Below, piece after piece: positions 20,453 through 39,631 of a DNA stretch of 64,000 nt. Source of the DNA: an uncultured Bacteroidales bacterium. Lineage in GTDB: Bacteria > Bacteroidota > Bacteroidia > Bacteroidales > Bacteroidaceae. The notes below the pieces were generated by a model, which saw only the letters and a program-made list of their open reading frames with translations, ran no database searches and had not been told where the DNA came from. Numbering within the stretch: position 1 is the first letter of the stretch; each line of letters begins with the position of its first letter. The translations under genes were made by a program, and so were the position numbers. The stretch lies in assembly GCA_902802285.1 (NCBI GenBank), contig CADCLI010000001.1:4010-68009 (forward strand), in the 5' to 3' direction.

Positions 20453-20878
20453 ATGGCACAACTGTACCTTTCTCTTGGAACCAATCTGGGCAACAGGCGC
20501 TCCAATCTGGATACCGCCCTGGACCTGATTGCCCGTGAGGTAGGTATCATAAAGGCCAGGTCTAGCGTGATTGAGACAGAGCCTTGGGGGTTTGACAGCC
20601 CCAACAGTTTTCTGAACATGGCTATACTGGTACAGACGGACCTCAAGCCCCTGGAAGTACTTGACAGGACCCAAAGGATTGAGAAGGATATGGGGAGGAC
20701 TTCAAAGACCGGTGCAGACGGTTACCATGACAGGATCATAGACATTGACATACTCCTGTACGATGACCTGACTATGGATACCCCCAGACTGACAATACCC
20801 CATCCACGAATGTATCAGAGGAGATTTGTAATGGAGCCGCTTGCCCAGATAGCTCCGCATATTGTAAAGGACTATTGA
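20453..20878 (+). CDS. folK: 2-amino-4-hydroxy-6-hydroxymethyldihydropteridine diphosphokinase
   Basis: LSLGTNLGNR, ETEPWGF, RIIDIDILLY and IPHPRM motifs. Confidence 0.85.
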   Translation: MAQLYLSLGTNLGNRRSNLDTALDLIAREVGIIKARSSVIETEPWGFDSPNSFLNMAILVQTDLKPLEVLDRTQRIEKDMGRTSKTGADGYHDRIIDIDILLYDDLTMDTPRLTIPHPRMYQRRFVMEPLAQIAPHIVKDY

Positions 20879-21034: not shown

Positions 21035-21859
21035 ATGAAAGAGATGACTCTTAAGGACATTCAGGATGTATCGCTCCGGATACTCAAGACGGTGCACGGT
21101 TTCTGCGTTGAGAACGGCATCAGGTACTCATTGGCATACGGCACACTGATAGGAGCCGTACGCCATAAGGGGTTTGTCCCATGGGACGATGACCTGGATA
21201 TCATCATGCCAAGGCCGGACTATGACAGGTTCTGCAGTACATTCCGGGCCCAAGGGTATCAGGTGGTCTCCAGACAGAACCGCAAAGACTGCTTTATCCC
21301 CTTTGCCAGGGTCTGTGACACAGTATCCACATGCTTAATGACCATGGAACCATGGATCAGACAGCAGGGTGACCTGGGAGTCTGGATAGACATCTTTCCG
21401 GTCGATGCCGCCCCCGATGACAGGGATGCTTTCCATAATCTGTATCTCAAGGCAAGCCATCATCATGCCAAGTCCATAATGGCACGCAGGCCATTTAGGT
21501 CATTGACCGGAAGCAAGCCTTTAAAGTACAATCTCAACACTATTAAAAAGAGAATCTTTGCCCTGTTCCGGCATTCACCGGAATATCATCTTGACGCAAT
21601 GCAACAGATCATAGGCATGACTCCGTACGGGTCTACCTGCCATCTGGCTCAATTTGCATATCCCGCCAAAGAGGAGTACTTTGACGCCAAGGTTATGGAC
21701 GGATACCATCTTACGGATTTTGAGGACTCAAGGTTCTACGTCATTGACAGATATGACGAATTACTCAGGATGGAGTACGGTGATTATATGACACTGCCTC
21801 CTTTAGACCAGCAGAAACCCCAACAGGATTACATAACAATTTTTTGGAAGGACAAATAA
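21035..21859 (+). CDS. licD: LicD-family phospho(no)-head-group transferase
   Basis: YSLAYGTLIGAVRHKGFVPWDDDLDI and C-terminal EYGDYMTLPP, the LicD/FKTN-type nucleotidyltransferase-fold signature. Confidence 0.8.
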   Translation: MKEMTLKDIQDVSLRILKTVHGFCVENGIRYSLAYGTLIGAVRHKGFVPWDDDLDIIMPRPDYDRFCSTFRAQGYQVVSRQNRKDCFIPFARVCDTVSTCLMTMEPWIRQQGDLGVWIDIFPVDAAPDDRDAFHNLYLKASHHHAKSIMARRPFRSLTGSKPLKYNLNTIKKRIFALFRHSPEYHLDAMQQIIGMTPYGSTCHLAQFAYPAKEEYFDAKVMDGYHLTDFEDSRFYVIDRYDELLRMEYGDYMTLPPLDQQKPQQDYITIFWKDK

Positions 21860-21879
21860 AAACATAATTAACTGACCTT

Positions 21880-23889
21880 ATGAAAGCTATTATACTGAAT
21901 TCAGGATTAGGACACAGGATGGGATCCATTACCGACACCCATCCCAAGTGTATGACTGAGATCTCATCGGACAACACAATCCTGAGCCGTCAGCTCAAGA
22001 AACTGGTGGCATTCGGAATTAACCAGGTGGTAATGACCACGGGATATTATAACAGCATCCTTGAGGAGTACTGCAGCGGCTTGCATCTGCCCATAAGATT
22101 CACCTTTGTAAACAATCCGGTTTACGACAAGACAAATTACATATACAGTATCTATTGCGCCAAGGACCTGCTCAAGGATGATGACGTAATCCTTATGCAC
22201 GGCGACCTGGTGTTTGAGCCGCTGGTATTGGAAGCAATACTCAAAAGCGATGTCAGTTGCATGGCTGTAAGCAGTACACTGCCATTACCTGAGAAAGACT
22301 TCAAAGCCGTTATAAAAGACGGCCGTATAGAGAAAGTAGGCATTGAGTTCTTTGACAATGCTATGGCAGCCCAGCCCCTCTACAAACTGCTTAAGGAGGA
22401 CTGGCTGGTATGGCTTGAGGCTATAGAGCGTTTCTGTGAGAACGATGACCGCAAATGCTATGCCGAGAATGCTTTCAACCAGGTATCGGACCGTTGCCGC
22501 ATCTATCCTGTAGATGTCAGGGATATGCTCTGTGCAGAGATTGACACCCCGCAGGATCTTGAGGTTGTCAGCGCCCGTGTCAAGGAGGTCAACAACCGTA
22601 CGGTCTACATGTGCTGCTCGACCGACTACATTCACAGCGGACACATTGCCATAATAAAAAAAGCCTGCCGTTTGGGCCGATTGACGATTGGTGTACTGTC
22701 AGATGAGGCGGTAGCCAGTTACAAGCGTTATCCGCTGCTTCCGTTTGATGAACGCAAATCGCTGTTTGAGAACATAGCCGGAGTTGAGAAGGTTGTAGAA
22801 CAGAAGTCCCTGAGCTATGCCGATAATTTGAGGCTACTGAAACCTGATTATGTAGTTCATGGTGATGATTGGGTGGAGGGATTCCAGAAACCTATCCGCG
22901 AAGAGGTAATCGGAGTACTTAAGGAGTACGGCGGAAAACTGGTTGAATACCCTTACTCATCGGACCCCAAATACAAACAGCTGGACTCCACCCTGCGTGC
23001 CGAATTGGCTATGCCCGATATGCGCAGAGGGAGACTTCGCAAGCTCATCAGCATGAAGGGACTGGTAACCGCAATGGAAGCCCACAGCGGTATCACAGGT
23101 CTGATAGTTGAGAAAACTACCGTGCTTCAGGACGGCAAGACCTACCAGTTTGACGCCATGTGGATAAGTTCGCTGTGCGACTCCACCGCCAAGGGCAAAC
23201 CCGATATTGAGCTTGTGGATATGACCAGCCGTTTCCGCACCATTGATGACATAATGGAGGTAACCACCAAGCCTATCATATTTGACGGTGATACCGGCGG
23301 ATTGACCGAGCATTTTGTATATACGGTCCGTTCACTTGAACGCATGGGTGTATCTATGGTTATCATTGAGGACAAGACAGGACTCAAGAAAAACTCCCTG
23401 TTCGGCACTGAGGTAAAGCAGACTCAGGATTCAATTGAGAACTTCTGCGAGAAGATAAAAGCCGGAAAGCGTGCCCAGAAGACCAAGGAGTTCATGATAT
23501 GCGCCCGCATTGAGAGCCTCATCCTGGAGCAGGGGATGGAGGATGCACTGAAACGTGCGTTCGCGTTTACCGCCGCCGGAGCCGACGCCATAATGATACA
23601 CTCGCGCAAAAAGGATCCCGCCGAGATATTTGAGTTTGTGGAGAAGTTCCGTAAGGAGAACAAGGTCACCCCGATTGTGGTGGTACCGACATCATTCAAC
23701 ACCGTGACAGAGGATGAGTTCAAACAGCGCGGAGTCAATGTGGTGATTTATGCCAACCAACTGACCCGCACAGGATTCCCCGCCATGCAGGATGCGGCAC
23801 GCACCATACTGGAGAACCACCGCGCCAAGGAGTGCGATGACAAGTGTATGTCAATCAAGGATATAATAACACTTATTCCCGAAGAATAA
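21880..23889 (+). CDS. aepX: Tri-domain fusion: LicC-like NTP-transferase + TagD-like cytidylyltransferase + phosphoenolpyruvate mutase
   Basis: Residues 1 to about 237: MKAIILNSGLGHRMG...FVNNPVYDKTNYIYS, LicC/NTP_transf_3-like. Residues about 240-370: VYMCCSTDYIHSGHIAIIKKA, the HxGH cytidylyltransferase motif. Residues about 375-669: GLVTAMEAHSGITGLI...FDAMWISSLCDSTAKGKPDIELV...IIFDGDTGG...IIEDK, PEP mutase/isocitrate-lyase fold. Confidence 0.85.
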   Translation: MKAIILNSGLGHRMGSITDTHPKCMTEISSDNTILSRQLKKLVAFGINQVVMTTGYYNSILEEYCSGLHLPIRFTFVNNPVYDKTNYIYSIYCAKDLLKDDDVILMHGDLVFEPLVLEAILKSDVSCMAVSSTLPLPEKDFKAVIKDGRIEKVGIEFFDNAMAAQPLYKLLKEDWLVWLEAIERFCENDDRKCYAENAFNQVSDRCRIYPVDVRDMLCAEIDTPQDLEVVSARVKEVNNRTVYMCCSTDYIHSGHIAIIKKACRLGRLTIGVLSDEAVASYKRYPLLPFDERKSLFENIAGVEKVVEQKSLSYADNLRLLKPDYVVHGDDWVEGFQKPIREEVIGVLKEYGGKLVEYPYSSDPKYKQLDSTLRAELAMPDMRRGRLRKLISMKGLVTAMEAHSGITGLIVEKTTVLQDGKTYQFDAMWISSLCDSTAKGKPDIELVDMTSRFRTIDDIMEVTTKPIIFDGDTGGLTEHFVYTVRSLERMGVSMVIIEDKTGLKKNSLFGTEVKQTQDSIENFCEKIKAGKRAQKTKEFMICARIESLILEQGMEDALKRAFAFTAAGADAIMIHSRKKDPAEIFEFVEKFRKENKVTPIVVVPTSFNTVTEDEFKQRGVNVVIYANQLTRTGFPAMQDAARTILENHRAKECDDKCMSIKDIITLIPEE

Positions 23890-23895
23890 ACCGAT

Positions 23896-25026
23896 ATGAT
23901 AAGACCTGAATTCTTTATAGAGGCCCTCAGACAGAAAGGGATTGACTGTTTTGCCGGTGTGCCGGACAGCCTGCTCAAGAACATATGCGCCTACATAACA
24001 GACCACTTTGATGCCAGTCATAACATAATTGCTGCAAATGAAGGTGCTGCCGTAGGATTTGCCGCAGGTCACTATCTGGCCACAGGACAGCCGGCCTGCG
24101 TATATATGCAGAACAGCGGTGAAGGCAACATAATCAACCCTCTGGCATCACTTACAGACCGTGAAGTCTATAACATTCCGGTGCTGTTGCTTATAGGCTG
24201 GCGCGGTCGGCCCGGAGTCCATGACGAGCCCCAGCACGTAAAGCAGGGTAAGGTTACAACCGGTCTGCTCAATGTAATGGGTGTCAACTACGAGGTTCTG
24301 AGCAAAGAAGAGGACAAGGCTGCAAAGCAGATAGAAAAGGCTGCATCGGCACTCCTTGACAACGAGGTCTTTGCCCTGGTGATAGAGAAGGATACGTTTG
24401 ATGAGTACAAACTTCAGAACGTCAATGCCAATGACCTGACCATGACACGTGAAGAGGCTATCCAGACTGTGGCATCGGCCTTATCATCCAAAGACGTGAT
24501 AGTAAGCACCACCGGTATGATAAGCCGTGAGTTGTTTGAAGCACGTGCTGCATGGGGGCAGGGTCACGAACGTGATTTCCTGACAGTAGGCTCAATGGGA
24601 CATGCCAGCCAGATTGCATTAGGGATTGCCTTAGAGAAGACAGACCGTAGGATATGGTGTTTTGACGGTGACGGAGCCACAATAATGCACATGGGTTCAA
24701 TGGCAATAGTGGCCAGCAAGAAACCGGCCAACTACATACACGTGGTATTCAACAACGGAGCCCACGATTCCGTAGGCGGTCAACCAACTGTAGGACTTGC
24801 CATAGACCTTCCGGCAGTAGCCAAAGCCCTGGGTTATTCCGCAGCATTCAGTGTAAGCACCATACAGGAACTAAAATCTCAACTCTCAATTCTCAACTCT
24901 CAATTCTCAGAAGGTCCGGTACTGATTGAAGTAAAGGTAAAGAAAGGCAACCGCAAGGACCTGGGCCGTCCCACCACGACCCCCATAGAGAACAGGGATG
25001 CGCTGATGCAGTTCCTAAAGAAATGA
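23896..25026 (+). CDS. aepY: Phosphonopyruvate decarboxylase (TPP-dependent)
   Basis: 376 aa. Shows the TPP-binding motif CFDGDGATIMHMGS...VFNNGAHDSVGGQ. It lies immediately downstream of PEP mutase. Confidence 0.85.
   Translation: MIRPEFFIEALRQKGIDCFAGVPDSLLKNICAYITDHFDASHNIIAANEGAAVGFAAGHYLATGQPACVYMQNSGEGNIINPLASLTDREVYNIPVLLLIGWRGRPGVHDEPQHVKQGKVTTGLLNVMGVNYEVLSKEEDKAAKQIEKAASALLDNEVFALVIEKDTFDEYKLQNVNANDLTMTREEAIQTVASALSSKDVIVSTTGMISRELFEARAAWGQGHERDFLTVGSMGHASQIALGIALEKTDRRIWCFDGDGATIMHMGSMAIVASKKPANYIHVVFNNGAHDSVGGQPTVGLAIDLPAVAKALGYSAAFSVSTIQELKSQLSILNSQFSEGPVLIEVKVKKGNRKDLGRPTTTPIENRDALMQFLKK
24876..24909 (+). repeat. Imperfect heptanucleotide tract (YTCTCAA)x5 inside aepY
   Basis: The sequence is atctcaa ctctcaa ttctcaa ctctcaa ttctca, encoding SQLSILNSQFS. 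The same ttctcaa unit forms the tails of the dispersed repeat at 19283-19298 (reverse complement) and 47885-47915. Confidence 0.75.
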
Positions 25027-25030
25027 CATT

Positions 25031-26170
25031 ATGCAGAATATAATACAAGGCATAGACAAACTGCAGGATCTGGTCAGGACCATAGGGAGCCGTAAGCTGT
25101 TCATGGTCATAGACTCGTCATACCCGTTCCTTAACATAAAGGATAGGATTGAGGAGATAACCGTGCCTAAGGTCTGTTTCTCTGATTTCAGGCCTAACCC
25201 CCTGTATGAAGACGTGTGCAAAGGCATAGACCTGTTCCATAAGGAGGAGTGCGATGCCATACTGGCCGTAGGCGGCGGCAGCTCCATTGATGTGGCCAAA
25301 TGCATAAAGCTGGCTGTTTTAGCCCGTGAAGGACGTGAAGGGCTTATCCCTCCGCTGGTATCAAAGCGTCTTGATATAGACGGATCACGTATTCCGTTAA
25401 TTGCCATCCCCACAACGGCCGGTACCGGCAGCGAGTCAACCCACAATGCCGTAATGTATTATCAGGGCTCAAAGCAGACCGTAACCAATGACGGCGTCCT
25501 GCCCGATTATGCCCTGCTTGAGCCAAAAGTCCTGGCCACACTACCCCTCTACCAGAAAAAATGCACTATGATGGATGCCCTGTGTCAGGGTATTGAGAGC
25601 TGGTGGTCAGTAAACTCAACCGATGAGAGCAAGGGCTATGCCAAAATAGCAGTGGAACTCATTACCCAATACTGGCGCAAGTACATATTTGACAATGATG
25701 CCGATGCTGCCGCAAACATAATGCTGGCTGCCAACTATGCAGGCCGGGCCATAAACATATCGGCCACAACCGCAGCCCACGCCATGAGCTACAAGATAAC
25801 GTCAATGTACAAACTTCCTCATGGTCACGCAGTCGCAGTCTGCCTCCCGGAGATATGGGAATACATGACAGCCCATCCGGAACACTGCATCGACCCCAGA
25901 GGCAAGGAGTATCTGACCGATATCTTCAACCAAATATCTGAAAGTCTTGGAACAGCCGGACCAAAGGATTCGATAGTCTTTGTCCGCCAAATGATGAAAG
26001 AGATGGATATGGAGAATCCTGTTGCCGTCAACAGGGAACAGGAACTGGGACTGCTTACCGAATCGGTCAATCCGGTCAGACTCAAGAACAACCCGGTGGA
26101 ACTGACACGGGATACTCTATGCAACCTTTATGGTATTATCGTAAAAAGATCCGTTGTATTACATTGTTAA
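25031..26170 (+). CDS. Iron-containing (group III) alcohol dehydrogenase; candidate phosphonoacetaldehyde reductase
   Basis: AVGGGSSIDVAKC, and His-rich metal-site regions (TAAHAMSY, PHGHAVAV). The function is inferred from its position directly after Ppm-Ppd. Confidence 0.7.
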   Translation: MQNIIQGIDKLQDLVRTIGSRKLFMVIDSSYPFLNIKDRIEEITVPKVCFSDFRPNPLYEDVCKGIDLFHKEECDAILAVGGGSSIDVAKCIKLAVLAREGREGLIPPLVSKRLDIDGSRIPLIAIPTTAGTGSESTHNAVMYYQGSKQTVTNDGVLPDYALLEPKVLATLPLYQKKCTMMDALCQGIESWWSVNSTDESKGYAKIAVELITQYWRKYIFDNDADAAANIMLAANYAGRAINISATTAAHAMSYKITSMYKLPHGHAVAVCLPEIWEYMTAHPEHCIDPRGKEYLTDIFNQISESLGTAGPKDSIVFVRQMMKEMDMENPVAVNREQELGLLTESVNPVRLKNNPVELTRDTLCNLYGIIVKRSVVLHC

Positions 26171-26188
26171 ACAAATAACAGAAACACA

Positions 26189-28003
26189 ATGCAGGCAATA
26201 ATATTAGCAGCTGGAATGGGTAAAAGACTTGGTGAACTCACCAAGGATAACACCAAATGCATGATTGAGGTTAATGGGCAAAAGCTTATTGACAGAATGC
26301 TTGGCCAGCTGGCCAAGCTAAATCTGAAAAGAGTTATTATCGTCGTAGGTTATCAAGCCGAAAACCTGATAAACCATTTAGGTCATAGATATGACGATAT
26401 GCTAAATATTGAGTTTGTATTTAACCCTATCTATGATAAGACAAACAATATCTATTCTCTTGCCCTTGCTAAAGAAAAATTGCAGGAAGATGATACCCTC
26501 CTACTGGAAAGCGACTTGATATTTGAAGATCGTATGCTTAGATTGCTTACAGACAATCCATACCCTAATCTGGCTCTGGTGGCCAAATATGAAACATGGA
26601 TGGACGGAACTATGGTACGCATTGACAGCGAAAAAAATATAGTTAGTTTTGTTCCAAAAAAAGCATTCCGGTACAGTGACGTGCCTTACTATTACAAGAC
26701 ATGCAATATTTATAAATTCAGTAAAGAGTTCTCATGTAACCAATACGTTCCGTTTTTGGAAGCATACAGCAAGGCAATGGGCGACAATGAGTATTACGAG
26801 CAAGTTTTGCGCGTAATCACGGCTTTGGACAAATCAACACTCAGGGCTCTTCCCATCACAGACGAAAAATGGTACGAGATTGATGATATTCAGGACCGCG
26901 ACATCGCTGAAATCAAGTTCTCTGTAGGAACAGATATGCTAAAACGTTTCCATCAGTGTTATGGAGGCTACTGGAGATTCCCGCAAATGAAAGATTTCTG
27001 TTATTTAGTCAATCCATTCTTCCCAACAGACCGCATGAAGGATGAATTACGCGCTAATTTTGACACTCTGCTCACAGAATATCCTTCTGGAATGACGGTT
27101 AACTCTCTGCTTGCAGGGAAGTATTTCGGTATTAGACAAGAGTTAGTATGTGTAGGCAACGGTGCAGCCGAACTGATAAAATGTCTTATAGAGAACCACT
27201 GCTCTGGTAAAATCGGTTTCGTATTTCCTACCTTTGAAGAGTACCCTAACCGTACGAACCCGGACAACAGGATAATATTCACTCCTTCCAATCCCGATTT
27301 CAGTTATTCAGCTCACGACCTTAAACAGTTCTTCAAGGATAAGGGAATAAGAAACCTTCTTATCATCAACCCCGACAATCCATCTGGCAATTATATTCCG
27401 TTCAATGAACTGAGACAACTTATTGAGTGGACTGCTGAGAACTCCATCAACCTGATAGTAGATGAAAGTTTTGTCGATTTCACCGACAATCACGCTACTG
27501 CATCCTTGCTTCATAATGATATTCTCCTGTCCAATCCACACCTGACAGTTGTTAAGTCCATAAGCAAATCATATGGAGTTCCTGGACTGAGACTAGGAAT
27601 AGTAGCATCGGGCAATACCGTAATGATGGATGAAATACGCAAAGAGGTGGCCATTTGGAACATCAACTCATTTGCAGAGTTTTATATGCAGATATTCAAC
27701 AAATATGAGAAAGATTTCCTTGAGGCATGTGACAAGTTCATAGCAGAGAGAAGTCTCTTCTTTAAGGAACTTAGCGCCATAACTTTCTTGCGTGTAATAC
27801 CTTCACAGGCCAATTATTTCCTGTGCGAAATCATAGATAAGTACACATCGGCTCAACTTACAGGAAAACTTCTGGAGGAAAGCAATATTCTTATCAAGGA
27901 CTGCGGACAGAAAAGTGCTTTTGCCGGCAAGAACTATATAAGGATTGCCATAAGAGACAGAGAGGACAACAGCAAACTGGTTCAAAAACTAAGAGAACTA
28001 TGA
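26189..28003 (+). CDS. Fusion: LicC-type nucleotidyltransferase + class I/II (HisC/CobD-like) PLP aminotransferase/decarboxylase
   Basis: N-terminal MQAIILAAGMGKRLG...FVFNPIYDKTNNIYS is paralogous to the N-terminus of the Ppm fusion. The C-terminal domain carries NPDNPSGN and the PLP-lysine motif SISKSYGVPGLRLG. Confidence 0.75.
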   Translation: MQAIILAAGMGKRLGELTKDNTKCMIEVNGQKLIDRMLGQLAKLNLKRVIIVVGYQAENLINHLGHRYDDMLNIEFVFNPIYDKTNNIYSLALAKEKLQEDDTLLLESDLIFEDRMLRLLTDNPYPNLALVAKYETWMDGTMVRIDSEKNIVSFVPKKAFRYSDVPYYYKTCNIYKFSKEFSCNQYVPFLEAYSKAMGDNEYYEQVLRVITALDKSTLRALPITDEKWYEIDDIQDRDIAEIKFSVGTDMLKRFHQCYGGYWRFPQMKDFCYLVNPFFPTDRMKDELRANFDTLLTEYPSGMTVNSLLAGKYFGIRQELVCVGNGAAELIKCLIENHCSGKIGFVFPTFEEYPNRTNPDNRIIFTPSNPDFSYSAHDLKQFFKDKGIRNLLIINPDNPSGNYIPFNELRQLIEWTAENSINLIVDESFVDFTDNHATASLLHNDILLSNPHLTVVKSISKSYGVPGLRLGIVASGNTVMMDEIRKEVAIWNINSFAEFYMQIFNKYEKDFLEACDKFIAERSLFFKELSAITFLRVIPSQANYFLCEIIDKYTSAQLTGKLLEESNILIKDCGQKSAFAGKNYIRIAIRDREDNSKLVQKLREL

Positions 28004-29085
28004 TTCCATACAGAATCTGTATATGCGGTGGAGGAAATCTAGCCCATGTGGTGGGCGGATATCTGGCAGCCAAACCCGAGTGTGAGGTAAGGTTGCTAAC
28101 CCGTTATCCGGAAAAATGGCAGCCCGAAGGTATCTTGAAACTTACTGATAACAATGGTAAGATTTTCAATTCAAGATTTACCCTTATAAGCTCAAATCCT
28201 TCCCAGACTATAACAGGAGCCGATATGGTTTTGGTCTGCCTGCCCGGATTCGCAATTGCACAGGTTCTTGAATCAATCAAAGATTACATAAGTAAGGAAA
28301 CTGTAGTAGGTTCTATCGTCTCAAGTACAGGTTTCTTTCTTATGGCTAAAAAGATATTACCTGCCGGAACCAAATTGTTCGGTTTCCAGCGTGTACCCTT
28401 TATAGCCCGAACCAATGAATATGGAAAATCCGCTTCACTTCTTGGTTACAAACCTTCATTGACTTATGCTTCAATGAATATAAACGACATACAAAGTTTT
28501 AGTCGGACTATTTCAGCTCTCTTTGATGTTTCTGTTACATGGCTTGACAGTTATCTCAAGGTTACCCTTACTAACAGTAACCCTTTGTTGCATCCTTGCC
28601 GCCTTTATGGGATGTTCGGAAGAGGAAAAACAGCGTTTGACAAACCAATTCTTTTTTATGAAGAATGGGATAACTTCAGTTCTGAAATGTTAATTGACTG
28701 TGATCTTGAATTTAGACATCTACTTGACAAGTTGGATATCGCCAGAAATGAAATTGTTCCCATTCTAGATTATTATGAGAGTCATGACTCCCTGTCCCTT
28801 ACTGAAAAAATCAGGTCTATCCAGGCTTTCAAAGGACTCCAAGCTCCAATGATACAATTATCTGACGGCTATTATTATCCAGATTGGAATAACAGATATT
28901 TTACTGAAGATATACCTTTTGGGCTTCTAATTATCAAGGCGTTTTGTCGCAAATACGGAATTGACACTCCAAAGATTGACACAATATTGAGATGGGCACA
29001 AACAGGTATGAATAAGCAATACATAGTTGGTAAGGATTTGACCGGAAAAGATATTCATCAAACAATAGTTGACTATGTGGACTGA
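28000..29085 (+). CDS. NAD(P)-dependent oxidoreductase, octopine/nopaline dehydrogenase-like (GpsA-like N-terminal Rossmann domain)
   Basis: Rossmann motif ICICGGGNLAHVVGGYLA, and a central TNSNPLLHPCRLYGMF like the Octopine_DH helical domain. The start overlaps the upstream stop (ATGA at 28000-28003). Confidence 0.55.
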   Translation: MIPYRICICGGGNLAHVVGGYLAAKPECEVRLLTRYPEKWQPEGILKLTDNNGKIFNSRFTLISSNPSQTITGADMVLVCLPGFAIAQVLESIKDYISKETVVGSIVSSTGFFLMAKKILPAGTKLFGFQRVPFIARTNEYGKSASLLGYKPSLTYASMNINDIQSFSRTISALFDVSVTWLDSYLKVTLTNSNPLLHPCRLYGMFGRGKTAFDKPILFYEEWDNFSSEMLIDCDLEFRHLLDKLDIARNEIVPILDYYESHDSLSLTEKIRSIQAFKGLQAPMIQLSDGYYYPDWNNRYFTEDIPFGLLIIKAFCRKYGIDTPKIDTILRWAQTGMNKQYIVGKDLTGKDIHQTIVDYVD

Positions 29086-30325
29086 ATCATTGACATCCTC
29101 TTTCCAGAGTATAATGGCTGCATTGAAACTCAATATCTATGTATGTCTTTATAACTTGCATCTGAAGATCTTACTCCCAAAGATCTCCAAGCATAAACCT
29201 ATTAGGATTATGTTTTATGTCAATAATTTGTCCATGTGGAAAGGAGACAAACTGTTGGATTTACTAAAAAAGGATGATAGATTCGAGCCTTTTGCCGTTT
29301 CATATCTCTACTCATATCATTCCACAAAGGAAAATACAGAATGCGAACAGGAACTATCATCACATTTCAGTTCATTAGGTGTTCGTTATTTTAGTGGCTT
29401 TGATTTTATACGAAACAAAAATATTTCCATTTCCGAGTTTAAACCAGACATCATCTTTTTTCCTCAACCGTACATTAATTACAGATCTGCCATTCCGTTG
29501 AATGCCCTTTTGTCATATATTCCATACGGATTCAGCATAGAAGACTCCAAGAAATTTCATAATTCGTTATATCAGAATGTATGCTGGAAATATTTTGTTA
29601 CAAACCAGTTGCAAAAAGAGTTGAAAACAAAATATAATATAAATCACGGAGTAAATGTCGTCGTTTCAGGAGATCCGTTAGCTGATTATTTCTTTGACGG
29701 ACATACACCATCTTCTGACAGTTGGCCTATCAATAATCCTCAAATCAAAAGGATAATTTGGGCTCCCCACCATTCAATCACTCCACAAGATTGGCTAAAT
29801 TATTCCAACTTTCTGGAAATTGCGGACGATATGCTTAATTTGGCAAAAGAGTACAATGACAAAGCTCAGTTCGTATTCAAGCCCCATCCTATGCTCAAAG
29901 ATAAACTATACAAGCTTGATAGCTGGGGAGTTGAAAAAACCGATTCCTACTTTGACGCATGGAAATCATTACCAAACTGCAATTCTGCAGAAGGTAACTA
30001 CGTTGACCTATTCATGTCTTCTGATGCCATGATTCATGATTGTAGTGCTTTTACTGCTGAATATCTGTATGTAAACAAGCCTGTAATGTATTTGACAAAA
30101 GAAGAAAGAATGGAATCATTCAATCAGTTTGCAAATGAATGTTTCAAGGTACATTATCATGGCTCCTCTATCTCAGACATAAAAAATTTCATCGACAATG
30201 TCATTAAGGGTATAGATCCTTTGGCTGATGAAAGAACAAAATTGATTAAAGAACAATTAAGGCCCAAAGGCAATGAAACAGTTGCCGGAACCATATATAA
30301 GGAACTTTGTAAAATATTTGAATAA
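29069..30325 (+). CDS. CDP-glycerol/polyol-phosphate transferase-like protein (TagB/TagF, Glyphos_transf family)
   Basis: IIWAPHHS and FVFKPHPML resemble the YAPTWR / KxHP motifs of TagB/F enzymes. The start is uncertain (29069, 29114 or later); 29069 overlaps the upstream gene by 17 nt. Confidence 0.6.
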   Translation: MTMWTESLTSSFQSIMAALKLNIYVCLYNLHLKILLPKISKHKPIRIMFYVNNLSMWKGDKLLDLLKKDDRFEPFAVSYLYSYHSTKENTECEQELSSHFSSLGVRYFSGFDFIRNKNISISEFKPDIIFFPQPYINYRSAIPLNALLSYIPYGFSIEDSKKFHNSLYQNVCWKYFVTNQLQKELKTKYNINHGVNVVVSGDPLADYFFDGHTPSSDSWPINNPQIKRIIWAPHHSITPQDWLNYSNFLEIADDMLNLAKEYNDKAQFVFKPHPMLKDKLYKLDSWGVEKTDSYFDAWKSLPNCNSAEGNYVDLFMSSDAMIHDCSAFTAEYLYVNKPVMYLTKEERMESFNQFANECFKVHYHGSSISDIKNFIDNVIKGIDPLADERTKLIKEQLRPKGNETVAGTIYKELCKIFE

Positions 30326-31816
30326 ATGGCAGAAAACCTGAAATCGCAAACCGTAAGAGGTGTATGGTGGAGTTTCCTTGAAAGATATTCCACACAGGGG
30401 GTTTCTTTCCTTATAACCCTATTCATGGCCCGCATCCTTTCTCCAGGCGAATACGGATTAATAGGAATGATTGCCATTTTCATGGCTCTTGGACAGGTTT
30501 TTATTGACGGTGGTTTTGCCAATGCTTTAATCCAGAAAGAGACCCGAACTGAAACCGATTTTTCTACAGTTTTCTGGATAAATGTCTCAATAGGTTTTCT
30601 TTCATATTTAATCCTGTTTTTTGCAGCTCCGATTATTGCGTCTTTCTACAATGAAGAAATACTCATACCCATCATAAAGATTTACGGCCTCAACCTTGTG
30701 TTATCATCGCTTGCCGGCGTAAACAAAGTCAAACTGGTTATTGACATAAACTTCAGGACACAACTAAAGATATCATTGATTTCGGCCATTACCTCAGGCA
30801 TAACAGGTATTATATGTGCATTGAAGGGTTGCGGAGTATGGGCAATCGTAGCACAATCAAACGTAGCCGCAGCTCTTACGGCTGTGCTTAGTTTTGTATT
30901 TGTCAAATGGAAGCCTTCGCTTACTTTTTCACGGGAATCTTTCAAGTCGTTGTTCTCTTTTGGATCCAAACTATTGGTGGCGCAAATCATAAGTACTGCA
31001 TACACATATCTTTATAACATTGTTATTGGCAAGAAATACACAAAGGCGGAATTGGGTTTGTACACTAAAGCCGGTCTGTTTTCACAAATGGTAAGTACAT
31101 ATCTCACATCAGCAATGACCAGAGTTTCCTTCCCCGTTCTTAGTCGAGTTCAAAATGAAGATGACCAACTGATGGGAGCATACAGAAAATTCATAGGTAT
31201 GGTCGCTTTTATTGTCTTTCCTATTGCTCTTGGAGTATGCGGGATGGCCAGACCGCTAATATTGTCGCTTATTACCGAGAAATGGTTGGGTTGTGTACCC
31301 TTTATACAGATTCTGATATTTGCATATCTGTGTGACGGTATTACCATTGTTAATTTGAACCTGCTTTACGTTAAAGGCAAGTCTAATGTGGTTTTGCGTC
31401 TGGAAATCATTAAAAAAACAATTGCTATTACGATGCTATTTATAGCGGCACGATATGGAATAAAAGCTATCTGCTGTAGTCAGGTCATTTATGCAATTAT
31501 TGCTCTGATTCTCAATACAAGGAACACAAAGAAACTCTTGAATTATGGTTTGCTGAGCCAAATCAAGGATTTATTCCCATACTTTATCTGCTCACTTGTC
31601 ATAATGGCAATTGCCCTTGGAATGGACCATTTACTCAATAATAGTTGGATTGTCCTGGGCTTGTGCATTATTATTTGCCCAACGGTTTATCTCCTACTGT
31701 GTTATGCTTTCAATTTAAAAGCATTGAATGAGATGGCCTCAATAATAGCATCTAACCAGTATTGTCCTGGATGGCTCTGCAGGATCCTAGTTAAAATATA
31801 TCCCGAACTGAAATGA
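30326..31816 (+). CDS. wzx: Wzx-type oligosaccharide flippase (MOP superfamily, Polysacc_synt)
   Basis: 496 aa with about 12-14 hydrophobic helices. The N-terminal LKSQTVRGVWWSFLERYSTQGVSFLITLFMARILSPGEYGL is typical of Wzx/RfbX. Confidence 0.8.
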   Translation: MAENLKSQTVRGVWWSFLERYSTQGVSFLITLFMARILSPGEYGLIGMIAIFMALGQVFIDGGFANALIQKETRTETDFSTVFWINVSIGFLSYLILFFAAPIIASFYNEEILIPIIKIYGLNLVLSSLAGVNKVKLVIDINFRTQLKISLISAITSGITGIICALKGCGVWAIVAQSNVAAALTAVLSFVFVKWKPSLTFSRESFKSLFSFGSKLLVAQIISTAYTYLYNIVIGKKYTKAELGLYTKAGLFSQMVSTYLTSAMTRVSFPVLSRVQNEDDQLMGAYRKFIGMVAFIVFPIALGVCGMARPLILSLITEKWLGCVPFIQILIFAYLCDGITIVNLNLLYVKGKSNVVLRLEIIKKTIAITMLFIAARYGIKAICCSQVIYAIIALILNTRNTKKLLNYGLLSQIKDLFPYFICSLVIMAIALGMDHLLNNSWIVLGLCIIICPTVYLLLCYAFNLKALNEMASIIASNQYCPGWLCRILVKIYPELK

Positions 31817-32835
31817 TAATAATACTGCTCATATTACTTGCATTAACCTGTATCGGCTTGAAAAAAGCCGATGACCAGGAAGTGTGTCTTAAAAAAGAGC
31901 ACACTGATGCAATTAAAGGCTTTTTCATTATCATTGTTTTTTACAGTCATATATTACCTTATCTTACTTCATCAGGGGTCAGTTTCTCTCCTGTTTGGGA
32001 TATACCTGCCAATAACGTCATAAAAAAAATAGGACAACTGATGGTTGTTATGTTCCTGTTTTATTCAGGTTATGGAGTGATGGAATCAATACAAAGAAAA
32101 GGCGACAGCTATATACGAGCCATACCGGTAAAAAGAGTCCTTTCAACTTTTATAAACTATTCTATTGCCATATTAGTCTTTCTTTTAATGAACTCATTAT
32201 TGGGCATTCATTATCCTTTTAGACAATATCTATTATCCCTTATAGCATGGGAAAGTGTCGGCCAAAGTAACTGGTACATCTTTGCTATTATTTGCTGCTA
32301 CATTTCTACTTATATATCCTTCCTGCTGTTTAAGGAGAAAAGGATAGCTTTTCTTGCCACTCTATTATTACTCGGCGTATATATTTGCTTGCTTCACGAA
32401 TTTAAAGAAAACTGGTGGTACAATATTATTATGTCATATCCTGCAGGAATGATGATTTCACTTTACAAGAAAAACATTATGCCTTTTTTGGAACAGCGTT
32501 ACATTTTATGCCTTTCAGGACTAACACTGTTATTTGTTTTGCTCTTTCATTACAGGAATTCAACGCCCACTTATTTGGCATGCGCTATAACTTTCGCATA
32601 TCTTGTTTTCGTCATTTCTTATAAATTTGTCGTAAAAAATGCTTTTCTGACATGGTGCGGCAATAATTTATTCCAAATATACGTGTACCAGAGGATTCCT
32701 ATGATAGCTCTTTCAAGCCTATTCCCAGATTTTGTAAGATTGCACCATTATATTTATGTTTTAAGCTGTTTGGCTGTAACTATGCTTTTAGCTATTCTCA
32801 TAAAACCGCTTTCTATTAATCTCAACAACAAATAG
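31813..32835 (+). CDS. Acyltransferase family 3 membrane O-acyltransferase
   Basis: 340 aa, polytopic. DAIKGFFIIIVFYSHIL (the D/N..RG....V...H-type N-terminal motif) and NNLFQIYVYQRI near the C-terminus. Confidence 0.7.
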   Translation: MIIILLILLALTCIGLKKADDQEVCLKKEHTDAIKGFFIIIVFYSHILPYLTSSGVSFSPVWDIPANNVIKKIGQLMVVMFLFYSGYGVMESIQRKGDSYIRAIPVKRVLSTFINYSIAILVFLLMNSLLGIHYPFRQYLLSLIAWESVGQSNWYIFAIICCYISTYISFLLFKEKRIAFLATLLLLGVYICLLHEFKENWWYNIIMSYPAGMMISLYKKNIMPFLEQRYILCLSGLTLLFVLLFHYRNSTPTYLACAITFAYLVFVISYKFVVKNAFLTWCGNNLFQIYVYQRIPMIALSSLFPDFVRLHHYIYVLSCLAVTMLLAILIKPLSINLNNK

Positions 32836-32838: not shown

Positions 32839-33798
32839 ATGCAAAAGCCCATTATTTCAGTAATCGTAGCCATCTACAACGCCCAGAAGACCCTGCCCCG
32901 GTTACTGGACAGCCTTAAGGCACAAACCATGCAGGAATTTGAGGCTTTGCTGATAGATGACGGCAGCACAGATGGCTCTGGTTCAGTGTGTGACCGTTAT
33001 GCCGCATCGGACTCCAGGTTCAAGGCTTTCCACAAGCCCAATGAAGGTATCGGCTCTACACGACAATTCGGAATAGAGCATGCCAGTGGAGAGTATACCA
33101 TTCATGCAGATGCCGATGACTGGGTGGAGCCGGATTATTTGAAGGAGCTCTATGACAAGGCCGTTGAAACTGATGCCGATATGGTCATATGTGATTTTTT
33201 TGTAGAGGACCGGAAAAGAACCATTTACAAGAAGCAAGAGCCTTCTTCATTAGACAGGGATTCAATTATAAACGACCTGTTATGCAAATTAAATGATGGA
33301 CCTTGCAACAAACTCCTTAAACGAAAGACTTATCTGGAACAAAACATTTCGTTTATGAAAGAATTGAATTATGGTGAAGACCAGTTATTTAATCTGCAAC
33401 TAATATGGCAAGGAGCATCTGTCTCTTACTTACCGAAAGCACTTTATCACTATGATGTTTCAGCCAATCCGGATTCTGCCGCACATGGCTATTCGCTCAA
33501 AAAAATACAAACCAGAGAAAAGTTCCTGATTGCACTCAACACTCTTCTGCCTGATAAATTTCAGAATGGTATTGACAATAAATACCTTGAGGTTGCTTAT
33601 ATGGCTGTGCAATCCAAGGAATTCACAAAAGCCCAATACCTAGAAAAGTACTCTTTCCTGTCGCGAGTAAAATACTGGGATTACAAGAATAAGGCTTTTT
33701 CTATCAAACTTGTGACCTGGATATCAATTAATTGTTCCTATCGCCTGGCCATATTCCTCTGTGACGTCAAAAAAGTGATACGTCGATTCCGGCGATAA
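32839..33798 (+). CDS. Glycosyltransferase family 2
   Basis: ISVIVAIYNAQKTLPRLLDSL, LLIDDGSTDGS and HADADDW (DxD). The 5' roughly 400 nt are GC-rich and the remainder is AT-rich. Confidence 0.85.
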   Translation: MQKPIISVIVAIYNAQKTLPRLLDSLKAQTMQEFEALLIDDGSTDGSGSVCDRYAASDSRFKAFHKPNEGIGSTRQFGIEHASGEYTIHADADDWVEPDYLKELYDKAVETDADMVICDFFVEDRKRTIYKKQEPSSLDRDSIINDLLCKLNDGPCNKLLKRKTYLEQNISFMKELNYGEDQLFNLQLIWQGASVSYLPKALYHYDVSANPDSAAHGYSLKKIQTREKFLIALNTLLPDKFQNGIDNKYLEVAYMAVQSKEFTKAQYLEKYSFLSRVKYWDYKNKAFSIKLVTWISINCSYRLAIFLCDVKKVIRRFRR

Positions 33799-33835: not shown

Positions 33836-34666
33836 ATGCAAGATATTTCTGTTTACAACAAGGAAGGTTCACCTTTACGCAAAGCCCAATTGGCTTCGCT
33901 TGATATTCTCATGGAAATAGATAGGGTGTGCAGGGAGAACAACCTGACTTATTGGATGGATTTCGGAACTCTTTTAGGGGCTATACGTCACAAAGGATTC
34001 GTGCCATGGGATGATGACATAGATATAACCATGCCTATCGATGATTTCAATGAATTTATCCGGATAGGTCAATCAAAACTAAAAAAAGGATTCTTTTTGC
34101 AGACAGAAAAGACAGATCCAGGTTCCAACATGGGTAAAGGTCTTTTCAAAGTACGCATGGACGGAACGTTGTTCATTAACGATTTTGACGATTTTTCAAA
34201 AAGTTACCATAAAGGCATTTCAATTGATGTTTTTGCCGAAGAACCATATCCCACTGTTTCTCCACGATTCCTGAACTTCATAAGAAAACGCATAAGCAAG
34301 GCTTTTGGCTTTTTTCATTATAACATAAAACTGAATTTCAAGAATATCGTCTCATACTTTTGCTTTCCAATTTCATATCTCTTTTTTAAAGGTCTGTGGA
34401 TTGTTATCTGCGCTTTGAAAAAGACAGACCGTGAATTTGTCAAGATAGAACGGGTGACCTACGGATATCCTACCCTGAGGACCGACATGTTACCGGTAAG
34501 TCAGATAGAGTTTGAAGGACATATGTTCAATGCTCCAAAAGTTCCGGAAGCAAGACTCAAAAACATATACGGAGACTACATGACCATCCCTCCTGTCGAA
34601 AAACAACGGATTCACGCCAAATTCATAAGCACGGATATTACAGATAATTACGTAAATCTTGATTAA
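33836..34666 (+). CDS. licD: LicD-family phospho(no)-head-group transferase (second paralog)
   Basis: YWMDFGTLLGAIRHKGFVPWDDDIDI and IYGDYMTIPP. It is paralogous to 21035..21859. Confidence 0.8.
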   Translation: MQDISVYNKEGSPLRKAQLASLDILMEIDRVCRENNLTYWMDFGTLLGAIRHKGFVPWDDDIDITMPIDDFNEFIRIGQSKLKKGFFLQTEKTDPGSNMGKGLFKVRMDGTLFINDFDDFSKSYHKGISIDVFAEEPYPTVSPRFLNFIRKRISKAFGFFHYNIKLNFKNIVSYFCFPISYLFFKGLWIVICALKKTDREFVKIERVTYGYPTLRTDMLPVSQIEFEGHMFNAPKVPEARLKNIYGDYMTIPPVEKQRIHAKFISTDITDNYVNLD

Positions 34667-34678
34667 AACTTCTCTGTT

Positions 34679-35776
34679 ATGAAGCAATACGACTATCTGA
34701 TAATAGGAGCCGGCCTCTTTGGCAGCATGTTTGCATTCCGCGCACGCAAGGCCGGTAAAAAATGTCTTGTAATTGACCGCAACCCGCATATCGGAGGAGG
34801 ATGCTACACTGAACAGATTAACGGTATTAATGTTCACAAATACGGTCCTCATATATTTCATACATCAAACAAACAGGTGTGGGATTTCATGAACGGTCTG
34901 GTTCCGTTCAATAATTTCATAAACTCCCCTATTGCCTGTTACAAGGGTAAGCGTTACAACCTGCCTTTCAACATGAACACTTTCCACCAGCTGTGGGGTG
35001 TTAACAATCCAGATGAGGCCAAGGCAATCATTGAAAGCCAAAGGGCCGAATATGCTGACATAGAGGAGCCTGCTAACCTAGAGGAACAGGCGCTCAAACT
35101 GGCCGGACGTGATATATATGAGACACTTGTCAAGGGTTACTCCGAGAAGCAATGGGGAATGAAAGCCACAGAGATACCAGCATTCGTCATCCGTAGACTG
35201 CCTTTCAGATTCGAGTTCAACAACAACTATTTCAACGACACCTTTCAGGGTATTCCCATAGGCGGTTACACTAAAATCTTTGAGAAACTGTTACAAGGTT
35301 GTGAGGTCAGGTTGGAAACGGAGTATTTTGAGAACAGGGAGTATTTTGACGGCTTGGCCGATAAGATAGTCTATACTGGTCAGATCGATGCTTTCTTCAA
35401 CTACCGATTTGGTGAACTTGATTTCCGTTCGCTATGTTTTGAGCATAAGGTATTGGAAGGTGTCAAGGATTTCCAAGGCAATGCCGTTGTCAACTATACC
35501 GAGGCTGAGATTCCTTACACACGGTGCATAGAGCACAAACACTTTGAATTCGGCAGGCAACCCGATACAGTCATAACATACGAGTATTCACGTAAATGGG
35601 AGAAAGGTGCTGCACCCTATTATCCCATAAACAATGACCGAAACAATGATGTGTTTGCCAGGTACGCCCAACTGGCCGCAAAAGAAAAGAACGTAATATT
35701 TGGCGGCCGTCTTGCGGAGTATAAGTATTACGATATGCACCAGATCGTTGAGAAAGTACTGGGAATGGAAATATGA
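34679..35776 (+). CDS. glf: UDP-galactopyranose mutase
   Basis: FAD motif YDYLIIGAGLFGSMFA, then VHKYGPHIFHT and GRLAEYKYYDMHQ. Confidence 0.9.
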   Translation: MKQYDYLIIGAGLFGSMFAFRARKAGKKCLVIDRNPHIGGGCYTEQINGINVHKYGPHIFHTSNKQVWDFMNGLVPFNNFINSPIACYKGKRYNLPFNMNTFHQLWGVNNPDEAKAIIESQRAEYADIEEPANLEEQALKLAGRDIYETLVKGYSEKQWGMKATEIPAFVIRRLPFRFEFNNNYFNDTFQGIPIGGYTKIFEKLLQGCEVRLETEYFENREYFDGLADKIVYTGQIDAFFNYRFGELDFRSLCFEHKVLEGVKDFQGNAVVNYTEAEIPYTRCIEHKHFEFGRQPDTVITYEYSRKWEKGAAPYYPINNDRNNDVFARYAQLAAKEKNVIFGGRLAEYKYYDMHQIVEKVLGMEI

Positions 35777-38614: not shown

Positions 38615-39631
38615 ATGATAATAACAAAGACCCCCTTCCGTATATCGTTCTTTGGAGGAGGAACAGATATGCCGTCTTTCTTTAACGAACATGGCGGAGC
38701 TGTCATTTCCACGACATTTGACAAATACTGCTATCTGGTAGTTCGTCACCTGCCGCCATTCAGGCCATATTATTCGGAGTTGGTCTACAGTAAGATGGAA
38801 AGGGTGAACACTATTGATGAGATACAACACCCCGCTATCCGCGAGGCAATGCGTATGCTGGATATTCATGAGATACGTCTGTCTTATGAGGGAGACCTGC
38901 CTGCCCGCACAGGCCTTGGTTCCAGCAGCACCTTTGCCGTGGGTATGCTAAACGCTTTCTATGCCCTTAAAGGCAAGATGGTAGGCAAACGCAAGCTTGC
39001 CCAGGATGCCATCTATCTGGAGCGTGAACTCTGCAAGGAGAGCGGCGGTTGGCAAGACCAGATTGCTGCCGCATTCGGAGGATTGAACCGCATTGATTTT
39101 GCCGACAACCAGTTCAAAGTCACTCCCATCATCATACATCCGGAGCGCAAGGCTTTGCTAAACGAGAGCCTTCTGCTATTCTACACCGGTATCTCCCGCT
39201 ATTCGGCCGAAGTCCAGAAGGACACCATGTCCAGACAGCAGGACAAGATAGCACAGTTCAAGGAGATGCTTCAGCTTGTAGATGAAGCACAGGCTATCCT
39301 TGAGAACAAGCACTCTGATTTTAATGATTTCGGGCGGTTGCTTGACCATACCTGGAGACTGAAACGCGCCACCGGAGGCAAGGTAAGCAACAGTTTTATC
39401 GATGAAATTTACGATAAAGGTATCAAAGCCGGCGCATTGGGAGGCAAACTGCTGGGTGCAGGCGGAGGCGGTTTCCTGCTTTTCTATGTGGAACCCGATA
39501 AGCGTCAGAACGTATTGAACGCACTTGACAATCTGATGAACGTTCCTTTTGCCTTTGAGAACGAAGGAACAAACATAGCTTACTACAATCCCGAAACGTA
39601 CATTCCCAGAAAGGAAATAACGATTGACTGA
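38615..39631 (+). CDS. hddA: GHMP-family sugar kinase, probably D-glycero-alpha-D-manno-heptose 7-phosphate kinase
   Basis: MIITKTPFRISFFGGGTD, GHMP motif PARTGLGSSSTFAVG and C-terminal GAGGGGFLLFY. The substrate is inferred from the presence of gmhA/gmhB/hddC-like genes at 1286-3041. Confidence 0.7.
   Translation: MIITKTPFRISFFGGGTDMPSFFNEHGGAVISTTFDKYCYLVVRHLPPFRPYYSELVYSKMERVNTIDEIQHPAIREAMRMLDIHEIRLSYEGDLPARTGLGSSSTFAVGMLNAFYALKGKMVGKRKLAQDAIYLERELCKESGGWQDQIAAAFGGLNRIDFADNQFKVTPIIIHPERKALLNESLLLFYTGISRYSAEVQKDTMSRQQDKIAQFKEMLQLVDEAQAILENKHSDFNDFGRLLDHTWRLKRATGGKVSNSFIDEIYDKGIKAGALGGKLLGAGGGGFLLFYVEPDKRQNVLNALDNLMNVPFAFENEGTNIAYYNPETYIPRKEITID

Follow-up and report, generated by a model that had tools for sequence, protein, structure and literature searches.

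A Variable Bacteroidaceae Surface-Glycan Locus with Two Independent Gene Modules: a Phosphonate Cassette and a Candidate Phospho-Opine Cassette

Organization of the Locus

The window analysed here is a stretch of 64,000 nucleotides from an uncultured Bacteroidales bacterium of the family Bacteroidaceae (assembly GCA_902802285.1, contig CADCLI010000001.1, positions 4,010 to 68,009 of the forward strand), and its variable surface-glycan locus holds three consecutive genes downstream of those for phosphoenolpyruvate mutase (Ppm) and phosphonopyruvate decarboxylase (Ppd). They encode a group III alcohol dehydrogenase (Fe-ADH), a fusion of a LicC-type cytidylyltransferase with a pyridoxal phosphate (PLP) enzyme, and an opine-dehydrogenase-like protein (OpDH) (Table 1). 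All three are real genes rather than chance open reading frames (ORFs), since each protein has thousands of homologues. The gene order and the translational coupling of the last two genes, as given by the first-pass annotation, were verified: the ATG of OpDH (28000-28002) and the TGA of the fusion (28001-28003) share an ATGA, and the same -4 overlap is present in 25 related loci.

These genes belong to two modules. Module A (21035-26170) is formed by LicD, the triple-fusion Ppm with its PntC-type and cytidylyltransferase (CyT) domains, Ppd and Fe-ADH, and it recurs elsewhere without the LicC-PLP fusion and OpDH. Module B is the self-contained pair of the LicC-PLP fusion and OpDH, spanning 26189-30325 together with a TagF-like gene. 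Functions were predicted from sequences and structural models, by tblastn and profile searches and by Pfam, NCBIfam, PDB and Foldseek comparisons. We propose, at about even chances, that the modules are two separate head-group cassettes within one variable surface-glycan locus, with the chemistries set out below.

Table 1. Features of the glycan locus, in positions of the window
Feature	Position	Strand	Domain match or remark
LicD (LicD 1)	21035-21859	+	PF04991 141 bits; first gene of the variable glycan locus
Triple fusion of LicC/PntC-type nucleotidyltransferase, TagD/Fom1-type cytidylyltransferase and Ppm (PEP mutase)	21880-23889	+	PF12804, PF01467, TIGR02320
Ppd, phosphonopyruvate decarboxylase	23896-25026	+	TIGR03297
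Fe-ADH, group III (Fe/Zn), 379 aa	25031-26170	+	PF00465 113 bits, PF25137 86 bits; last module A gene
Module A/B junction (mosaic boundary)	26171-26188		GC and identity pattern
LicC-PLP fusion, 604 aa	26189-28003	+	NTP_transf_3 residues 3-134, Aminotran_1_2 residues 311-601
LicC/PntC-type cytidylyltransferase domain of the fusion	26189-26938	+	PF12804, PF00483
PLP class I/II domain of the fusion, CobD / L-serine-phosphate-decarboxylase-like	26939-28003	+	PF00155
Opine-dehydrogenase-like (OpDH), 361 aa	28000-29085	+	PF02317 (Octopine_DH) 111.1 bits, cut-off 30
TagF-like (Glyphos_transf) transferase	29069-30325	+	PF04464 37 bits
Wzx-type flippase of the glycan locus	30326-31816	+	PF13440 301 bits
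Acyltransferase	31813-32835	+	
GT2	32839-33798	+	
Second LicD (LicD 2)	33836-34666	+	PF04991 112 bits
Glf, UDP-galactopyranose mutase	34679-35776	+	PF03275; directly after LicD 2

Occurrence of the Two Modules in Other Genomes

A profile of OpDH was run on 185,579 species-representative genomes of GTDB, giving 513 loci with a relative, and the best 80 of these 513 were taken with 10-kb flanks and searched with the window proteins by tblastn. The sampled loci (L-numbers below) come mostly from Bacteroidales, in addition to Fibrobacter, of gut and rumen. Of the 80 loci, 71 have the LicC-PLP fusion in the 10-kb flank of OpDH, usually directly upstream, and only seven have Ppm/Ppd there. Among the 71 fusion-bearing loci, Ppm occurs in L007 and L010 only, leaving 69 without it within 10 kb, and L007 is the only one of the 80 with Fe-ADH. 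Unbiased clustering of the neighbouring ORFs returned as recurrent neighbours a LicC-containing gene (75/80), LicD (48/80, of which 15 are fusions with OpDH) and a cluster of about 480 residues that includes Wzx homologues, as in L008 and L009 (34/80), and no recurrent kinase or phosphatase around OpDH in these 80 loci. In the minimal contexts, the pair stands alone beside ribosomal genes (L002) or is accompanied by a flippase only (L001).

Moreover, one chromosomal site, bacA-truB-queA-folK followed by the glycan locus, occurs in three states: with module A only (L088, L090), with module B only (L008, L009, L060), and with both (the window and L007). In the window, LicD 1 comes after folK/HPPK (20453-20878) and adjoins the Ppm fusion. 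Downstream, L008 and L009 have TagF-like, flippase, acyltransferase-like and GT2 genes as in the window; their TagF-like gene (66-67% identity) follows OpDH, as it also does in L023, and no LicD-like gene was found within 7 kb in these three loci. The first-pass annotation had read the last two genes as tailoring steps on phosphonoacetaldehyde; this claim is not supported, in view of the 69 of the 80 sampled loci that have the pair without Ppm within 10 kb and of the three states of a single site. Module B probably needs no phosphonate.

The composition of the DNA changes within the locus, as the GC content is 0.50 at 24001-26000, then 0.41 and then 0.375, with the drop beginning near 26,000. 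The closest relative among the species representatives is L007, an uncultured Bacteroidaceae metagenome-assembled genome (MAG) from red deer, and its identity to the window is 99-100% for the module B genes, 95% for Ppm, 81% for Ppd and 90% for Fe-ADH. The GC break and the split in identity thus indicate a recombination junction at about 26,180. This pattern suggests that head-group cassettes were recently reshuffled by recombination at one fixed site downstream of queA-folK.

The Phosphonate Module

Both Ppm and Ppd are above the trusted cut-offs of their models (TIGR02320, 410 bits against 319.55; TIGR03297, 515 bits against 312.5), and Ppm has, at residue 497, the motif EDKTGLKKNS, which matches EDKxxxxxNS. 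Triple fusions of this type were already known, with 42 cases representing 2.8% of Ppm proteins (PMC6697681). The Ppm of the window carries a fused PF01467 domain of the type of Fom1, where this domain cytidylylates 2-hydroxyethylphosphonate (PMC6697681).

Regarding Fe-ADH, its second-best PDB match is the sulfoacetaldehyde reductase 6jko/6jkp, a structure that was taken as the template of PhpC in a 2026 study (PMC13576164). In this alignment, D182, Q186, H250 and H264 coincide with the metal-site residues of 6jko/6jkp and K148 with the clamp Lys of PhpC, while Y254 occupies the position of the PhpC-specific Tyr264, a residue reported to be strictly conserved in PhpC, with Phe in its place in sulfoacetaldehyde reductases (PMC13576164). 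R350 is near the position of the clamp Arg, with a one-residue gap beside it that makes this equivalence less certain. Fe-ADH therefore combines the PF00465 fold, the Tyr at the Tyr264 position and the Lys/Arg clamp of the PhpC type. Its gene is adjacent to Ppm-Ppd in the window, L007, L087, L088/89 and L090/91; three homologues, 70-82% identical, are all found within a set of triple-fusion Ppm, Ppd and Fe-ADH, and the fusion/OpDH pair is absent from these loci (L087, L088/89 and L090/91).

Compared to PhpC/FomC-type phosphonoacetaldehyde reductases and to the sulfoacetaldehyde reductase 6JKP, Fe-ADH has the same fold, with Y254, K148 and the nearby R350, its gene comes directly after Ppd, and the cluster has a Fom1-type cytidylyltransferase domain; however, it belongs to a glycan locus and not to an antibiotic cluster. 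Two further differences count against its assignment. Its top NCBIfam model, the phosphonate-associated Fe-ADH TIGR03405, gives 148.2 bits, under the cut-off of 423.7, which places the protein outside the equivalog, and the second ligand of its metal is the Gln of sulfoacetaldehyde reductase, where PhpC has a His. Still, the reduction of phosphonoacetaldehyde is a well-supported prediction because of the PhpC residues and the constant association with Ppm-Ppd, seen in four independent contexts, in agreement with the role given to this enzyme by the first-pass annotation. Fe-ADH is probably a phosphonoacetaldehyde reductase producing 2-hydroxyethylphosphonate, and as such it is an ordinary further example of a known enzyme type.

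The Opine-Dehydrogenase-Like Enzyme

OpDH is homologous over its full length to the octopine dehydrogenase (OcDH) of Pecten maximus (3c7a, E 4.8e-42). Its AlphaFold2 (AF2) model (pLDDT 92.3) was compared by Foldseek, and the 12 best-ranked structures are without exception opine dehydrogenases (best, OcDH 3iqd, E 1.6e-32, TM 0.82), ranked before ketopantoate reductases and mandelate dehydrogenases; a ketopantoate-reductase identity was discarded, as both the sequence and the fold matches favour opine dehydrogenases. A GpsA-like polyol-phosphate dehydrogenase, the other alternative of the first-pass annotation, was likewise rejected: the GpsA model NF000944 gives 20.5 bits (cut-off 603) over the N-terminal 100 residues only, and there is no GpsA among the PDB sequence matches with E<=0.01 or the Foldseek top 50.

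The Rossmann motif CICGGGNLAH aligns with CVCGGGNGAH of OcDH, its three Gly being invariant in the family, and H198, R299 and D304 align with His212, Arg324 and Asp329 of OcDH, which we take to be its catalytic triad. Each of the three is kept in no fewer than 77 of the 78 sequences, among them those of the clade linked to 2-aminoethylphosphonate (AEP) transaminase that is described below. The predicted fold and the His-Arg-Asp triad are therefore those of OcDH, CENDH and the staphylopine, yersinopine and pseudopaline dehydrogenases. The amine side is different. The guanidinium of arginine is bound in OcDH by the side chains of Glu142 and Trp278 (PMC2924402), and both binders are gone in OpDH, Glu142 being replaced by Gln130 and Trp278 falling in a seven-residue deletion. 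Moreover, Arg131, Arg137, Arg201 and Lys270 hardly vary among the family members, Arg131 adjoining Gln130 at the Glu142 position, and these basic residues would suit an anionic end of the substrate.

In other lineages, OpDH is fused to LicD, in either domain order, and to a PF01467 cytidylyltransferase. These fusions place OpDH between nucleotide activation and transfer, and the coupling to nucleotidyltransferases and LicD distinguishes it from the other opine dehydrogenases. Because of this coupling and of the loss of the arginine binders, we infer that OpDH probably acts on a nucleotide-activated aminoethyl phosph(on)ate rather than on a free amino acid.

Among these fusions, a LicD-opine-dehydrogenase protein with the reverse domain order was seen on marine (TARA) contigs (L094:5053-6768, L095:8001-9716 and L096:1972-3687), whose neighbouring genes look eukaryotic or giant-virus-like (ERCC4/MUS81, zf-MYND and fatty-acid desaturase). 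The cytidylyltransferase-OpDH fusion P0452 gave no informative neighbourhood, its contig being too short.

The LicC-PLP Fusion

The N-terminal domain of the fusion matches LicC (1jyk, E 3.3e-13) and PntC (6pd1, E 9.5e-10). Its LLLESD is identical to the motif of Tde-PntC, and its E107 aligns with Glu104, the residue that touches the primary amine of AEP in that enzyme (PMC6697681). PntC-AEPT of Treponema denticola (Tde1415; 6PD1/6PD2), a fusion that makes CMP-AEP, is similar in joining an N-terminal LicC-type domain, with the amine-contacting Glu, to a PLP enzyme supplying the amine. However, when the whole fusion of the window was searched, 6PD1 matched the LicC half only (E 3.5e-9); the C-terminal domain of Tde1415 is of class V (PF00266), whereas that of the window is a class I/II, CobD-like domain (PF00155), in a module normally without Ppm. 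The link of LicC-aminotransferase fusions to CMP-AEP, as given in the first-pass annotation, thus applies to the LicC half and fails for the aminotransferase half.

The PLP domain has as its best solved relative, by about 50 bits, 6OUX (E 7e-41), followed by CobD (1lc5, E 2e-24) and HisC (E 2e-20 or weaker). 6OUX is deposited as a 'threonine phosphate decarboxylase-like enzyme', and we take it to be SMUL_1544, an L-serine O-phosphate decarboxylase. The PLP lysine lies within SISKSYG, and this motif and DESF are kept in 65-66 of 66 full-length homologues (DESF in 65). The Phe of DESF is shared with the two decarboxylases (DEAF and DESF), while the HisC aligned with them has DEAY, a contrast taken from four alignments and not a published rule. 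These features favour the suggestion of the first-pass annotation that the HisC/CobD-like domain could be a phospho-amino-acid decarboxylase. SMUL_1544 and CobD (1LC5, an L-threonine O-phosphate decarboxylase) are the nearest sequences, with the PLP lysine and the DE(A/S)F motif in common, but both are stand-alone enzymes of cobamide biosynthesis, whereas the window domain is fused to a cytidylyltransferase in a glycan locus.

A caution against the decarboxylase assignment comes from the NCBIfam models: the domain scores 159.6 bits for CobD (TIGR01140, cut-off 290.55) and 139.5 bits for hisC (TIGR01141, cut-off 276.55), below both, and is a member of neither equivalog. For this reason, it represents a distinct subfamily, with room for an aminotransferase activity, for example from dihydroxyacetone phosphate to serinol phosphate, which is weighed below.

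Loci in Which an AEP Transaminase Replaces the Fusion

Five loci of Alistipes and other Bacteroidales (L019-L022 and L024) lack the LicC-PLP fusion. Their OpDH immediately follows a set of CyT-Ppm, Ppd and a class V AEP transaminase (AEPT), with a separate LicC upstream and Wzx and TagF-like genes downstream. The OpDHs of these loci group in a single clade, with about 50% identity to the rest. In addition, a distant cytidylyltransferase-OpDH fusion adjoins Ppm and a class V aminotransferase in L092:21-6243. This locus also has a beta-hydroxyacid-dehydrogenase-like gene and a gene for a 564-aa protein with a cytidylyltransferase domain, no Ppd is visible on its short contig, and it may encode an amino-phosphonate route derived from phosphonopyruvate.

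A PLP enzyme stands beside OpDH throughout, either the AEP transaminase or the decarboxylase-like domain, and the partner is expected to supply a 2-aminoethyl-phosph(on)ate: AEP from AEPT and phosphoethanolamine from the decarboxylase-like domain. An amine-condensing OpDH would have an obvious substrate in both settings and a plain carbonyl reductase none. There is no AEP transaminase in the window, so the amine is here most likely phosphoethanolamine rather than AEP. The N-(carboxyalkyl) opine-type head group proposed by the first-pass annotation is therefore upheld in its opine part, through the opine-dehydrogenase fold, the triad and the PLP partner, and not in AEP as the amine of this locus; the N-carboxyalkyl-AEP idea probably applies to the AEPT-linked clade, where OpDH follows Ppm-Ppd-AEPT.

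Proposed Chemistry of the Two Modules

In module A, Ppm and Ppd would produce phosphonoacetaldehyde, which Fe-ADH would reduce to 2-hydroxyethylphosphonate. This product would then be activated as its CMP conjugate by one or the other nucleotidyltransferase domain of the Ppm fusion, and a LicD-type transferase would attach 2-hydroxyethylphosphonate to the glycan; tentatively, both LicD genes of the window serve the phosphonate.

In module B, the CobD-like PLP domain would decarboxylate L-serine O-phosphate to phosphoethanolamine, a substrate that fits the minimal contexts L001 and L002 because it is a central metabolite. The LicC domain would convert phosphoethanolamine into CDP-ethanolamine, and OpDH, with NAD(P)H, would reductively join the free amine to a 2-oxo acid, of which pyruvate is the simplest choice, giving CDP-N-(1-carboxyalkyl)ethanolamine. 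Finally, the TagF-like enzyme would put the phospho-opine head group on the glycan, while in other species LicD, often fused to OpDH, would be the transferase of module B. The order PLP enzyme, cytidylyltransferase, OpDH, transferase is adopted because in no other linear order are the two partners of each fusion always neighbouring steps, and it implies that OpDH would act on a CDP- or CMP-activated amine. The TagF-like enzyme is likely the module B transferase, since it is the only transferase candidate within 7 kb in L008 and L009.

The head group expected with pyruvate has a known counterpart, as N-[(R)-1-carboxyethyl]ethanolamine phosphate is a substituent of the O-polysaccharide of Proteus mirabilis (PMC9630907). 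This is the exact kind of head group predicted for module B, but the likeness is one of chemical structure only, in an unrelated bacterium, and the paper on the Proteus O-antigen gene clusters has no discussion of genes for carboxyethyl-ethanolamine. The R configuration of the Proteus substituent matches the D-centre made by opine dehydrogenases.

With a chance that we put slightly under even, OpDH and its relatives would represent an undescribed and widespread branch of opine dehydrogenases acting on nucleotide-activated 2-aminoethyl phosph(on)ates, forming, as a decoration of surface glycans, a phospho-opine (N-carboxyalkyl-phosphoethanolamine) where they accompany the fusion and a phosphono-opine (N-carboxyalkyl-AEP) where they accompany Ppm-Ppd-AEPT. 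A literature search that covered few subscription journals found no description of module B, nor of an N-carboxyalkyl-AEP head group. The pair of LicC-decarboxylase and opine dehydrogenase is apparently a widespread variant of known enzyme families, seemingly uncharacterised.

Several points weigh against the proposed chemistry. The module enzymes and the carrier glycans are known here from genes alone, and the only ground for placing cytidylylation before condensation is the logic of the fusions. The absence of Ppm holds within 10 kb and concerns mostly MAGs, in which a ppm locus may lie farther away. The carbonyl partner of OpDH is uncertain, and OcDH Gln118, presumably a pyruvate-binding residue, aligns with an invariant Ser in the OpDH family. 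Moreover, with three nucleotidyltransferase domains in the locus and three genes that could encode its head-group transferases (two LicD and one TagF-like), the pairing is ambiguous.

Alternative Explanations

The PLP domain could instead be a keto-phosphate aminotransferase forming serinol phosphate from dihydroxyacetone phosphate, as Campylobacter Cj1437 reportedly does, so that a CDP-serinol-type head group would be N-alkylated by OpDH. Such a route requires no kinase, which fits the minimal contexts, and the HisC model is only 20 bits under the CobD model, both being below cut-off. However, the nearest solved structure, ahead by about 50 bits, is that of a decarboxylase, the DESF motif of 65 of the 66 homologues has Phe in place of the Tyr of the aligned HisC, and the substitution by AEPT points to an unbranched 2-aminoethyl product, which makes this explanation unlikely. 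Concerning OpDH, it might be a plain carbonyl reductase, similar to GpsA or to pneumococcal Gtp1, providing a polyol phosphate to the TagF-like enzyme. Weak matches at the Rossmann level (GpsA, E 1.8e-4; ketopantoate reductase, E 2.2e-6) and the similar layout of pneumococcal wchX-gtp1-gtp2-gtp3, a capsule-locus set that combines a TagF-like enzyme with a dehydrogenase and a LicC-like nucleotidyltransferase, speak for it. These CDP-2-glycerol genes were compared by annotation only (Gtp1 'glycerol-2-phosphate dehydrogenase', Gtp2 'nucleotidyl transferase', Gtp3 'phosphotransferase'); on this basis, they were rejected as a homologous system and kept as a weak rival. Against this rival, Gtp3 is annotated as a phosphotransferase and not as a PLP enzyme. 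The structural ranking of the 12 opine dehydrogenases, the lack of GpsA in the same PDB and Foldseek matches, the near-invariant opine-dehydrogenase triad and the fact that both partners, the decarboxylase-like fusion and AEPT, deliver amines and not ketones make a carbonyl reductase highly improbable.

The two remaining explanations bring the modules together. By cross-talk, OpDH would reductively aminate phosphonoacetaldehyde with phosphoethanolamine or CDP-ethanolamine, producing an N-(2-phosphonoethyl)ethanolamine head group. This would be related to N-hydroxyethyl-AEP, which Fibrobacter succinogenes makes without an AEP transaminase and for which a reductive amination with ethanolamine was proposed (PMC8942020); Fibrobacter MAGs (L057, L071 and L077) carry module B, which is adjacent to module A in the window and to a phosphonate set in L010. 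Nevertheless, L008 and L009 have no Ppm in the locus and their OpDH (72-74% identical) and fusion domains (83-89%) are close to those of the window, the conserved residues checked (triad and basic) are near-invariant in all sampled loci whether Ppm is present or not, and phosphonoacetaldehyde is already used by Fe-ADH in a unit that recurs alone, so that cross-talk seems improbable. In the last explanation, the PLP domain of the window would transaminate phosphonoacetaldehyde to AEP, LicC would form CMP-AEP and OpDH would yield N-(carboxyalkyl)-AEP. The fusion and OpDH are indeed 3' of Ppm-Ppd, with Fe-ADH between, OpDH directly follows canonical Ppm-Ppd-AEPT in the L019-L024 clade, and the LicC domain has the amine-contacting Glu of PntC. 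Against this, the fusion and OpDH occur without Ppm nearby in 69 of the 80 loci, in the PLP domain, the DESF motif is of the decarboxylase type and the nearest relative is a serine-phosphate decarboxylase, the AEP-using clades have a class V AEPT and not the fusion, and the mosaic boundary falls between Fe-ADH and the fusion gene; we hold it to be the least probable of these alternatives.

Implications

For genome mining, the locus would correct the reading of such clusters: neighbours of ppm need not act on a phosphonate, and mosaics can mislead. If the proposed chemistry of module B is true, two genes would be enough for abundant gut and rumen bacteria to make a charged opine-type glycan head group out of central metabolites, namely serine phosphate, CTP and a 2-oxo acid. 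As a general expectation, such charges on the surface could influence immune recognition by the host, adsorption of phages and resistance to cationic peptides. The pair would also be a candidate genetic basis for the N-(1-carboxyethyl)ethanolamine phosphate of the Proteus O-antigen, and an undescribed N-carboxyalkyl-AEP would be predicted in the Alistipes-like clade. The enzymes are soluble, and cultured carriers, both with module B only, are available in Parabacteroides sp. PH5-46 (NZ_JARXXA010000014.1) and Bacteroides sp. 224 (NZ_QVMK01000001.1).

Further Features of the Locus

The start listed for the TagF-like gene is a TTG at 29069, and the in-frame ATGs at 29075 and 29114 are likelier starts, the former still overlapping the stop codon of OpDH (29083-29085). 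Further transferase genes are present 3' of Glf, as far as 38565. A GHMP kinase at 38615-39631 was considered as a PduX-like threonine kinase, a possible source of threonine phosphate, and rejected, as it looks to be of the sugar-kinase type (HddA/fucokinase); a GHMP kinase is also found at the right edge of L090, which has module A only.

In a related Bacteroidaceae (L010:7301-19845), module B is followed by CyT-Ppm, a radical-SAM/SPASM-cytidylyltransferase fusion, Ppd and a DegT-type aminotransferase, and then by a metallo-beta-lactamase-fold protein, an ATP-grasp ligase, a short-chain dehydrogenase/reductase (SDR) and a second LicD, a set that may encode an unusual phosphonate. Finally, a LicD-Glf pair is common to the window (33836-35776) and to the locus with module A only (L088:13048-15032), which hints that LicD 2 decorates a galactofuranose-containing unit.

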